In this document: positions 8,915 to 11,291 of the stretch, in pieces
How positions within the stretch are numbered: position 1 is the first letter of the stretch
Layout: every line of letters starts with the position of its first letter
Assembly: GCA_030149205.1 (NCBI GenBank)
Contig: JASBSB010000001.1
Location: forward strand, 660,001 to 692,000
DNA from: Candidatus Heimdallarchaeota archaeon
Lineage (GTDB): Archaea; Asgardarchaeota; Heimdallarchaeia; Heimdallarchaeales; Kariarchaeaceae
Length of the DNA: 32,000 bases
Direction: 5' to 3'
Made by a program: the position numbers and the translations under genes
The notes under the pieces: generated by a model
What the model saw: only the letters and a program-made list of their open reading frames with translations
What the model was told of the DNA's origin: nothing
Database searches by the model: none

Positions 8915-9220
8915 TTATTCTGCTTCGATCGCATGAACCTTGTCTTCCATGACTCTTTCTTTATCCCTTCTGTCATCAATTTTTAGTGTGGTTACAACAC
9001 GATCTGCTCCCATCTTAAAGATAGCCTCATGTGCTAGTTTTGTGACCTTTAAGATCTCATCAACTGAATTTGCCTCTATCACAGTTCCCATAGGATGATG
9101 AAGGACCCGAATCTCAGGATACGCATCTATCTCCCTTACAGCTGCTCTTACATATTTACTTAATGAAACACTCTCTCCTACAGGAGAACATACCAATTCT
9201 GCAATAACCTTGTACGACAT
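8915..9220 (-). CDS. MTH1187/YkoF-family thiamine-binding protein
   Basis: IAELVCSPVG..VSLSKYV, PMGTVIE, RVVTTLKIDDRRDK. Start placed at the ATG at 9220 after GGAG. Confidence 0.9.
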   Translation of the reverse strand: MSYKVIAELVCSPVGESVSLSKYVRAAVREIDAYPEIRVLHHPMGTVIEANSVDEILKVTKLAHEAIFKMGADRVVTTLKIDDRRDKERVMEDKVHAIEAE

Positions 9221-9294
9221 AAACTCCAATTCGGACAAACTTTATAGCTTCAATGATAACACCATTGTTAATACATCTGTTTCAAGTCACTATA

Positions 9295-9302
9295 TTTAAA
9301 AA
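9295..9302 (+). promoter_or_regulatory. Probable TATA box for the rpl1-rplP0-rpl12 operon
   Basis: TTTAAAAA preceded by TATA; implies a transcription start near 9325. Confidence 0.5.
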
Positions 9303-9345
9303 ACAGAAAAGTTCAGGTAAATCACAGAGGTTAATCAATCTCTAA

Positions 9346-9379
9346 CCTGCGTTTGACTGAAGGTTAATTCAGGAGCAGG
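9346..9379 (+). promoter_or_regulatory. uL1-binding RNA element (autoregulatory operator) in the rpl1 5' UTR
   Basis: CCUGC-GUUUGA-CUGAA-(GGUUAA)-UUCAG-GA-GCAGG: two helices flanking a 6x2 internal loop with G-GA-G / C-G....A-C, the known uL1 target geometry. Confidence 0.7.
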
Positions 9380-9386
9380 AGGTGAT
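9377..9386 (+). promoter_or_regulatory. Extended Shine-Dalgarno sequence for rpl1
   Basis: AGGAGGTGAT is complementary to the usual archaeal 16S 3' end (…AUCACCUCCU) and ends 5 nt before the ATA at 9392. Confidence 0.8.
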
Positions 9387-9391
9387 GACAG

Positions 9392-10042
9392 ATAGATCAC
9401 AACACAATACTAACAGCAGTAAACAAGATGAAAGAAGTCTCAAAGGAAAGAAAATTTGTCGAAAGTGTTGATATCTCTATAGGTCTGAAAGATGTAAACT
9501 TAAAGGATCCAAGTAAGAGGTTTAGAGCAGAAATTGTTCTACCTCATAAGCCAAACAAAGCAGCAAGAATTGCAGTTGTCGGAACCACAGATATCTTAGA
9601 ACGAGTGAAAGAACTCAATGTTCAACAGATGTTGAGTGATACCGATGTTGAAAACATTGCAAAAGACCCCAAGGCTGCTAAAGGCTTTGTCAAAGACATA
9701 GATTATGTCCTTGCGATCCCTCAGATGATGGCGATAGTTGGTAAAAATCTTGGACGATTTTTAGGGCCAGTTGGTAAAACACCCAGTGTGTTACCACCTA
9801 ACGCTGAGTTTGAAAGTTTCTTAGACCGATATCAAAGAATCTGCAAATTACGACTTAGGCAGAATCCTGTGATTCATGCAAGAGTTGCAACCAGAGATAT
9901 GGAAAACAACGACATAGCTGAAAATGTGGAAGTGGTGTTAAGAGAGCTTGAAAAAAGACTCGATAATGGCCCACACAATATTAAACATGTCCATATCAAA
10001 ACCACAATGGGTCCAGCTGTCGAGATAGGAGGCACAAACTGA
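9392..10042 (+). CDS. rpl1: 50S ribosomal protein uL1 (start re-assigned to ATA 9392; the ORF track uses ATG 9428)
   Basis: RKFVESVDISIGLK, EIVLPH, LGRFLGP.GK.P, IKTTMGPAV. The 12 codons before ATG 9428 encode the conserved N-terminal helix. Confidence 0.97.
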   Translation: MDHNTILTAVNKMKEVSKERKFVESVDISIGLKDVNLKDPSKRFRAEIVLPHKPNKAARIAVVGTTDILERVKELNVQQMLSDTDVENIAKDPKAAKGFVKDIDYVLAIPQMMAIVGKNLGRFLGPVGKTPSVLPPNAEFESFLDRYQRICKLRLRQNPVIHARVATRDMENNDIAENVEVVLRELEKRLDNGPHNIKHVHIKTTMGPAVEIGGTN

Positions 10043-10971: not shown

Positions 10972-10988
10972 AACAATAGGTGAAAACA

Positions 10989-11291
10989 ATGGAATATTTA
11001 TATGCCGCTTTATTATTACACAAAGCTGGAAAAGATGTAACTGAAGATACCCTCACCGCTGTCTTAAAAGCTGCTGGTGTTGAGGTTGATGAAAACAGAG
11101 TAAAATCCCTGGTTGCCGCCCTTAAGGGTGTAAACATTGATGAAGCTCTTCAATCTGCTGCAATGGTAGCTGCCACTCCTATGGCTGGTGGTGCTGGCGC
11201 AGCTGAAGCAGAGGAAGAAAAACCTGCTGAAGAAGAGGAAGAGGAAGAAGTTGATGAAGCAGACCTTGGATTAGGTTCATTATTTGGTTAA
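10989..11291 (+). CDS. rpl12: Ribosomal stalk protein aP1 (L12p)
   Basis: [14 protein letters not shown]...E..L..VLKAAG; GGTGA Shine-Dalgarno supports ATG 10989 over GTG 10980. Confidence 0.98.

Follow-up and report, generated by a model that had tools for sequence, protein, structure and literature searches.

The DNA analysed here is a stretch of 32,000 nucleotides, called the window below (G000:C4:660001-692000), from the genome of a Candidatus Heimdallarchaeota archaeon of the family Kariarchaeaceae (G000; 3.3 Mb in 12 contigs, 93.5% complete). On its plus strand lies rpl1, the gene for ribosomal protein uL1, whose proposed coding sequence occupies 9392..10042 and comprises 216 codons plus TGA. 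Translation of rpl1 very probably begins at the AUA codon at 9392..9394, the sole conserved candidate start, which is replaced by ATC in three congeners and by ATG in other genera of the family, and which aligns with Met1 of archaeal L1 proteins of solved structure.

Upstream, a tandem pair of in-frame stops, TGA TGA (9383..9388, plus strand; 9383-85 and 9386-88), closes the rpl1 frame. The first of the pair is part of the Shine-Dalgarno (SD) sequence, and a further in-frame TAA is found at 9365; because of these three stops, no upstream open reading frame (ORF) can feed into rpl1. From 9389, where the frame opens, the codons read CAG ATA GAT CAC AAC ACA ATA CTA ACA GCA GTA AAC AAG ATG. The last of these, at 9428..9430 on the plus strand, is the first ATG, GTG or TTG in the frame; it is codon 14 of the open frame and codon 13 of the proposed protein, and it leaves no canonical start at all between the upstream stop and the conserved N-terminus. 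Another ATG, at 9385, is out of the rpl1 frame and opens an ORF of 28 codons. The public gene call for this contig starts at ATG 9428 and gives a protein of 204 aa, as foreseen in a first-pass annotation of the window, which had expected automated annotation to truncate uL1 by 12 aa. That annotation had also described the frame as open from 9389 and free of ATG, GTG and TTG before 9428, and the stops and codons listed above agree with it.

The encoded protein is a full-length member of the uL1 (L1) family. The Pfam family PF00687 was found on the called protein, and uL1 chains in the PDB match with E values of 1e-37 to 1e-46 over residues 3-215. In a sequence search of solved structures, residue 3 (Asp) of the open frame aligns with residue 2 of the L1 proteins of M. 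jannaschii and M. thermolithotrophicus (1cjs and 1dwu), and the ATA codon therefore occupies the position of Met1. The first-pass proposal that the ATA corresponds to the start of archaeal uL1 is thus upheld against both structures.

The 3' end of the 16S rRNA encoded by this same genome is ...GGATCACCTCCT, to which the SD sequence AGGAGGTGAT (9377..9386, plus strand) is complementary over 10 nt. This sequence ends 5 nt before ATA 9392, and direct reading of the 24 nt that precede ATG 9428 found no SD match; both statements had been made at first pass, and both hold. Spacing was counted from the GGAGG core, and an SD was regarded as strong if the match extended over 7 nt or more. Across the genome, ATG codons following a strong SD peak at 7-10 nt past the core (20, 13, 12 and 11 cases, respectively), and ATA 9392, at 9 nt, lies within this peak.

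Comparison with related genomes

It is the comparison with relatives that is decisive for the predicted non-canonical start of uL1. The genus comprises four species-level genomes, the one studied here and the congeners G001, G002 and G003, whose uL1 proteins are 62-67% identical to that of this species. The three congeners share the leader ttcaggagcaggaggTGA, which is followed by CAA ACA ATC GAT, CAT ATA ATC GAT or CAT AGA ATC GAG. In other words, each has caggagcaggaggTGA, two codons and then ATC GAT or ATC GAG, with the ATC again 9 nt past GGAGG. Across the genus the start codon reads ATA/ATC/ATC/ATC, its third base drifting between A and C, and in all four species it is directly followed by Asp or Glu. 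The congeners lack a canonical start for 33-59 codons; counted along the open frame, the first one is codon 34 or 60, within the conserved fold, and their public gene calls are 183-186 aa in length. ATG 9428 is private to this species; the congeners carry GCA (Ala) at that position. Two points on which the first-pass proposal of an AUA start depended were thereby settled in its favor: at the start position the congeners show ATC rather than ATG, and no ATG that could come into frame through a 1-nt indel is present in any of them.

Other genera of the family carry ATG at exactly the homologous codon. One example reads caggagcaggagg, 9 nt and then ATG GAT, and in another GGAGGT is followed after 6 nt by ATG GAC CAT. 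A near-cognate codon thus stands, throughout the genus, where orthologues have AUG. The reading of uL1 starts was extended to the remainder of the class, for which 83 genomes were searched, and to another 60 Asgard genomes that represent 23 families. Among the readable genes, a near-cognate start was found in 4/4 species of the genus and in none of ~130 genes elsewhere; outside the genus, ATG, GTG or TTG is present at or near the N-terminus, and one gene has an ATG 11 codons upstream.

The pattern of substitution provides a separate view of the same codons. Within the genus, changes in the first 33 codons fall mostly at the third position (5:2:11, 7:3:17 and 4:3:14 by codon position, for example), and among the three species with ATC (G001-G003) synonymous changes outnumber non-synonymous ones over this segment. 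The dominance of third-position substitutions therefore indicates coding constraint from the ATH codon (ATA, ATC or ATT) onward.

Two other public uL1 calls, P0003 (206 aa, beginning with V) and P0012 (184 aa), are truncated as well and share 62-64% identity with this uL1. They probably represent additional lineages whose uL1 genes lack a canonical start. An exact-match scan of metagenome contigs for more members of the genus, with the 17-mer TCAGGAGCAGGAGGTGA, returned 120 unrelated matches, none of them encoding uL1, and the pattern proved unspecific.

Probable near-cognate starts elsewhere in the genome

The whole genome was screened for SD-led open frames without a canonical start, and the candidates were checked against relatives. 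The gene for uL3 (G000:C2:413661-414659, minus strand; L159) has a predicted ATT start 9 nt past the GG of AGGTGAT. Its start region reads aGGTGA TGC TTT ATT ACA GCA, the first canonical start follows 49 codons after the ATT, and the Pfam L3 profile is aligned from residue 5 of the protein to profile position 5. All four species of the genus keep the ATT, as does a second genus, and a third genus has ATA ATT ATA; in three other genera and in the sister family, ATG is found at the same place behind the same leader. The leader motif GGCCTCT(A/G)G...AGGTGA is conserved before both the ATT-start and the ATG-start uL3 genes, and it may be a structured ribosomal-protein leader.

Comparable arrangements were found on genes of other functions. 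In dnaG (G000:C4:94022-95521, minus strand; L161), which has a predicted ATC start, GGAGGT and 6 nt are followed by ATC/ATA/ATC/ATC in the genus and by ATA in a second genus, with ATG in two other genera. In ppdK (G000:C4:532119 onward, plus strand; L213), a CTG start is predicted in this species only (AGGTGA ATT AAT CTG AAA); two congeners have ATG at the position of the CTG, and the frame passes the LLGGKGA motif before its first canonical start. A secreted subtilase-like protein (G000:C2:183871-185370, minus strand; L160) appears to start at an ATA 7 nt past GGAGGA, at the beginning of its signal peptide, which the first canonical ATG would halve; in two congeners the homologues carry TTG in place of this ATA.

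The gene for the initiation factor aIF1 (SUI1; G000:C4:157383-157706, L230:1471-1794:-, minus strand), which proofreads start codons and rejects near-cognate ones, belongs to the same group. It reads aGAGGT TGA ACA ACA ATA TTC GAT GAT, with ATA as the predicted start and no canonical start before the zinc knuckle. In other Kariarchaeaceae genomes the start codon of aIF1 is ATA or ATT in six and TTG in one, and most of these genomes have an in-frame stop at a distance of one to three codons upstream. The three congeners carry an extra ATG two codons upstream, only 4 nt past GAGG, and the sister families have ATG or GTG.

Only ~140 genes in the whole genome have an SD match of at least 6 nt at 7-10 nt. 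The codons found at this distance were ATG in 106 cases, TTG in 26, ATT in 12, ATA in 7, GTG in 5, CTG in 4 and ATC in 3, so that GTG is rarer here than either ATT or ATA; at an off-peak control spacing the counts were 4 for ATT, 5 for ATA, 2 for ATC and 0 for CTG. From this modest enrichment, the number of strongly SD-led genes with near-cognate starts may be put at the order of ten.

Further near-cognate candidates were C4:293655 (ATT, with 83 codons free of a canonical start), a Cas10-like gene on the minus strand of C8 (ATA), the membrane protein gene at C4:923392 (ATT) and Rpo6 (ATT or TTG). Candidates encoding a small GTPase, a RAMP protein and a dCMP deaminase were dropped, as plausible canonical starts lie a few codons downstream. 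Two possible causes of a relaxed start selection were also considered and rejected. Loss of aIF1 does not apply, given that its gene is present, and the initiator tRNA is not unusual, having the A1:U72 pair, the GGG/CCC anticodon stem and the anticodon CAU (aragorn found few tRNAs overall, so that a second species may be present).

SD complementarity differs between the two types of start. For uL1 it extends over 9-10 nt in genes with an ATH start vs. 5-7 nt in those with ATG, and for uL3 over 7-8 nt with ATT vs. 4-6 nt with ATG. The long SD of the weak-start genes looks like compensation for a weak codon rather than a means of lowering output.

Leader structure and operon

A putative promoter with a TATA-box element, CTATATTTAAAAAAC, lies at 9290..9304 on the plus strand, ~100 nt before the start, and implies a leader of ~70 nt; a ATATTTAAAA element is present at equal distance in all four species of the genus. 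We infer from this element both promoter function and the approximate site, near 9320, at which transcription would start.

The leader is predicted to form a two-helix structure (9346..9379, plus strand) that is a candidate feedback site for uL1. In the consensus fold, helix P1 pairs CCUGC (9346-50) with GCAGG (9375-79), its 3' strand running into the SD sequence, and helix P2 pairs CUGAA (9357-61) with UUCAG (9368-72). The consensus over nine members of the family has 10 pairs, of which three show compensatory changes, and each of the four species of the genus has the structure in its predicted minimum-energy fold. A conserved helix-internal loop-helix element therefore adjoins the rpl1 start, as expected of a uL1 autoregulatory site of the kind known from the L1 operon of Methanococcus and the L11 operon of E. 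coli. An Rfam scan of 9200-9560 at E values up to 10 matched the leader to no family and returned only a chance snoRNA match on the other strand. The leader structure is independent of the weak codon, because it is present in genes with ATG as well as ATH starts.

A second possible structure had been proposed at first pass, namely a hairpin in which GUGAU and AUCAC pair and hold the AUA in the loop (9382..9400, plus strand). The pairing does occur in the predicted minimum-energy fold of this species (-4.3 kcal/mol), but it is weak (z -1.6) and is unformed in the three congeners, and the hairpin was rejected as a conserved element.

Downstream, rpl1, rpl10 and rpl12 follow one another directly on the plus strand, in the order known from the archaeal operon. 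The gene rpl10 (uL10/P0; 10042..10971, plus strand) begins with an ATG that overlaps the stop codon of rpl1 (TGATG), and a GGAGG SD core of its own (10028..10032, plus strand) lies within the end of rpl1, 9 nt before ATG 10042. The overlap together with the separate GGAGG means that rpl10 is both coupled to rpl1 and independently SD-led. Its geometry (GGAGG, 9 nt, codon) equals that of rpl1, but the codon is a canonical ATG. The ORF of rpl12 (P1 stalk protein) occupies 10980..11291 on the plus strand, with ATG 10989 as the likely start.

Discussion

The observations presented above suggest that rpl1 is translated from AUA 9392 in the following way. The 10-nt SD duplex would hold the small ribosomal subunit with the AUA in the P site, 9 nt past the GGAGG core. 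The ordinary initiator tRNA (CAU) would then pair with AUA despite the mismatch at the third position, to give a protein starting with Met-Asp-His-Asn, and the unusually long SD duplex would keep the complex together for long enough to offset the weak codon. The predicted N-terminal tryptic peptide would be MDHNTILTAVNK if the protein begins with Met, which should be kept ahead of Asp, and IDHNTILTAVNK if it begins with Ile.

Several considerations weigh against an AUA start. The support for it is comparative sequence evidence. The four members of the genus are kin, and their AUH codon may stem from a single ancestral change; for the same reason, the contrast in SD length amounts to one or two evolutionary events per gene. 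This species, alone among the four, has an in-frame ATG 12 codons downstream, which could yield a second, shorter product. According to reviews of translation in archaea, the start codons are AUG, GUG and UUG only (PMC7531240, PMC4705826), and on a model mRNA the aIF1 of S. solfataricus is described as rejecting AUU (Hasenohrl 2009, as cited in PMC4705826). By analogy, the efficiency of initiation at AUA may be low. A search for literature on archaeal AUA, AUU and AUC starts found, in the library searched, no core gene of an archaeon for which a conserved AUH start is reported. A ribosome-profiling study of H. volcanii noted near-cognate alternative sites but left them out of account (PMC7261190).

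The weak start of rpl1 could be interpreted in other ways. First, AUA could be a selected, uL1-specific throttle which lowers the output of uL1 relative to uL10 and P1 within the operon. The identical geometry of rpl10, with ATG in place of AUA, is in keeping with such a role, as is the fact that 0/4 species reverted to ATG despite heavy synonymous divergence. However, the weak-start genus has a longer SD than its ATG-start relatives do, and this combination of a longer SD with a weak codon argues against the codon existing to lower output. Near-cognate starts also occur on unrelated genes, and ~130 other Asgard uL1 genes do without one. The recurrence of such starts on uL3, dnaG, ppdK, aIF1 and others therefore points to a habit of the lineage and not to a feature of uL1. 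The first-pass annotation had proposed that a weak AUA and a strong, regulated SD tune uL1 output; the weak codon and the strong SD are both borne out, but uL1-specific tuning is not, and we see no evidence for uL1-specific control through the start codon. A throttle of this kind is thus unlikely. The leader helix adjoining the SD is, as modeled, more likely to be the uL1 feedback site than the start codon is, because uL1 is known in archaea to repress the translation of its own operon (PMC2175363).

Second, translation could begin at ATG 9428, yielding a 204-aa uL1 without its first 12 residues and leaving the upstream codons as untranslated leader. ATG 9428 is the sole canonical start near the 5' end, it was picked by automated calling and, being unique to this species, it could be a newly gained start. 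Nevertheless, it has no SD, while the 10-nt SD located 45 nt upstream of it is placed exactly for ATA 9392. The congeners have no equivalent of this ATG and, for 33-59 codons, no other canonical start that could serve in its stead. In addition, the codons that would be skipped keep the conserved D..I..AV.K pattern, and a start at 9428 would remove the greater part of helix alpha1, which covers the core of RNA-binding domain I (PMC2175363). We consider it improbable that ATG 9428 is the start of rpl1; it could serve as a minor second start.

Third, ribosomes could start out of frame, at GTG 9382 or ATG 9385, and enter the rpl1 frame by a programmed +1 frameshift. All four species have the GTG (inside GGAGGTGA), which lies 10 nt ahead of the ATH codon and has a second GGAG 6 nt upstream of it, and G002 reads GTG ACA TAG, which faintly resembles a stop-stimulated shift site. 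Against this, the out-of-frame ORF has 2, 13, 20 and 28 sense codons in the four species with no shared slippery site or stop, and ATG 9385 is absent from the congeners. Both codons lie within the SD core or 2 nt past it, too close in comparison with the 7-10 nt peak. Family members with an ATG start have the same leader and carry their ATG 9 nt past GGAGG. The combination of a conserved upstream start, a slippery sequence and a stop or hungry codon that marks +1 frameshifting of the prfB or antizyme type was not found at this locus, and such a mechanism is very improbable here.

Finally, it is hardly credible that a normal ATG is masked by an error of sequencing or assembly, be it G to A at 9394 or an indel of 1 nt within 9385-9391: a one-base deletion after ATG 9385 would indeed give M-Q-I-D, resembling the M-S/P-I-D N-termini of other Asgard uL1 proteins, but three independent assemblies of sister species have the identical frame relation and a third base other than G, the site is not a homopolymer, ATG 9385 lies only 2 nt past GGAGG, and no single type of error explains the same pattern with ATT, ATC and CTG on other genes. 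The congeners keep ATC together with the same SD and spacing, which effectively excludes a sequencing error, an indel of 1 nt and any frameshift that would start from ATG 9385.

We infer that near-cognate starts (AUA, AUC, AUU and CUG) are tolerated across the lineage on SD-led genes of this Heimdall family, that of aIF1 included, and that the AUA of rpl1 is an instance of this tolerance. What the weak start is for could be explained in two ways, which we regard as about equally probable. It may be a substitution that is tolerated as long as the SD compensates for it, or it may be kept so that output depends on the stringency of initiation, as set by the level of aIF1. A circumstantial pointer to the latter is the ATA start that aIF1 itself has in the family. 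One could go further and suppose that aIF1 limits its own synthesis through its AUA start, and that core growth genes with AUH or CUG starts and long SDs (uL1, uL3, dnaG) form an aIF1-responsive regulon. Such a stringency-linked regulon is conceivable because aIF1 rejects AUU in S. solfataricus and has an AUA start here, but we put it forward only tentatively and think it rather doubtful. If it exists, such a regulon would make both ribosome production and replication depend on the state of the initiation machinery.

The AUU start of infC underlies the autocontrol of IF3 in E. coli. This start and the discrimination exerted by IF3 have been reviewed (PMC4705826). Together with other AUU-initiated bacterial genes, infC is the closest analogue of the arrangement proposed for rpl1, as both comprise an essential translation gene, a conserved near-cognate AUH start, an SD and a normal initiator tRNA. 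The likeness extends to aIF1, in that the gene of a fidelity factor has a predicted near-cognate start in this lineage as well. The two systems differ in other respects. In archaea, aIF1, aIF1A and aIF2 replace IF3, and uL1 is a ribosomal protein rather than a fidelity factor. The third base of the uL1 start also drifts between A and C within the genus.

The next closest parallel is eukaryotic near-cognate initiation, where eIF1 is described as autoregulated by way of a start in poor context (Ivanov et al., 2010, cited in PMC6237735). In both cases a factor of the e/aIF1 type sets the stringency, and weak starts would make output depend on it. Unlike in eukaryotes, however, there is no scanning and no Kozak context; the SD duplex positions the start, and the weak feature is the codon itself. 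With regard to the SD, the rpl1 leader is close to the aEF1A model mRNA of P. abyssi, in which GGAGGUGAU is followed after 4 nt by AUG (PMC6237735): the SD is nearly identical and the spacing is 5 nt here vs. 4 nt, but AUA stands in place of AUG.

The candidate feedback site in the leader may likewise be compared with a known system. In the L1 operon of Methanococcus the uL1 site lies just inside the coding region. The uL1 protein of Methanococcus vannielii, MvaL1, is described as binding its own mRNA in the autoregulation of the L1 operon (Mayer, 1998; Kraft, 1999; both cited in PMC2175363). Both organisms have an L1-L10-L12 operon with a conserved structured RNA adjoining the rpl1 start, here a candidate uL1 site. 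In contrast to M. vannielii, where the start is AUG, the helix found here is in the leader and abuts the SD.

In summary, a universally conserved ribosomal protein and other core genes of this lineage appear to keep AUA, AUC or AUU where their relatives have AUG, whereas gene finders, like reviews, assume only AUG, GUG and UUG. The annotation of 5' ends would in that case be systematically wrong in these genomes, with uL1 being 12 to 36 residues short and uL3 losing ~50. These implications are drawn from comparative sequence evidence. Asgard archaea are the closest relatives of eukaryotes. The initiation machinery of this Asgard lineage would have to tolerate near-cognate codons as long as the mRNA is held by a long SD duplex, a requirement that is relevant to the evolution of stringent start selection towards eukaryotes. 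Within this lineage, aIF1 with its predicted near-cognate start may be a concrete candidate for control based on the stringency of initiation.

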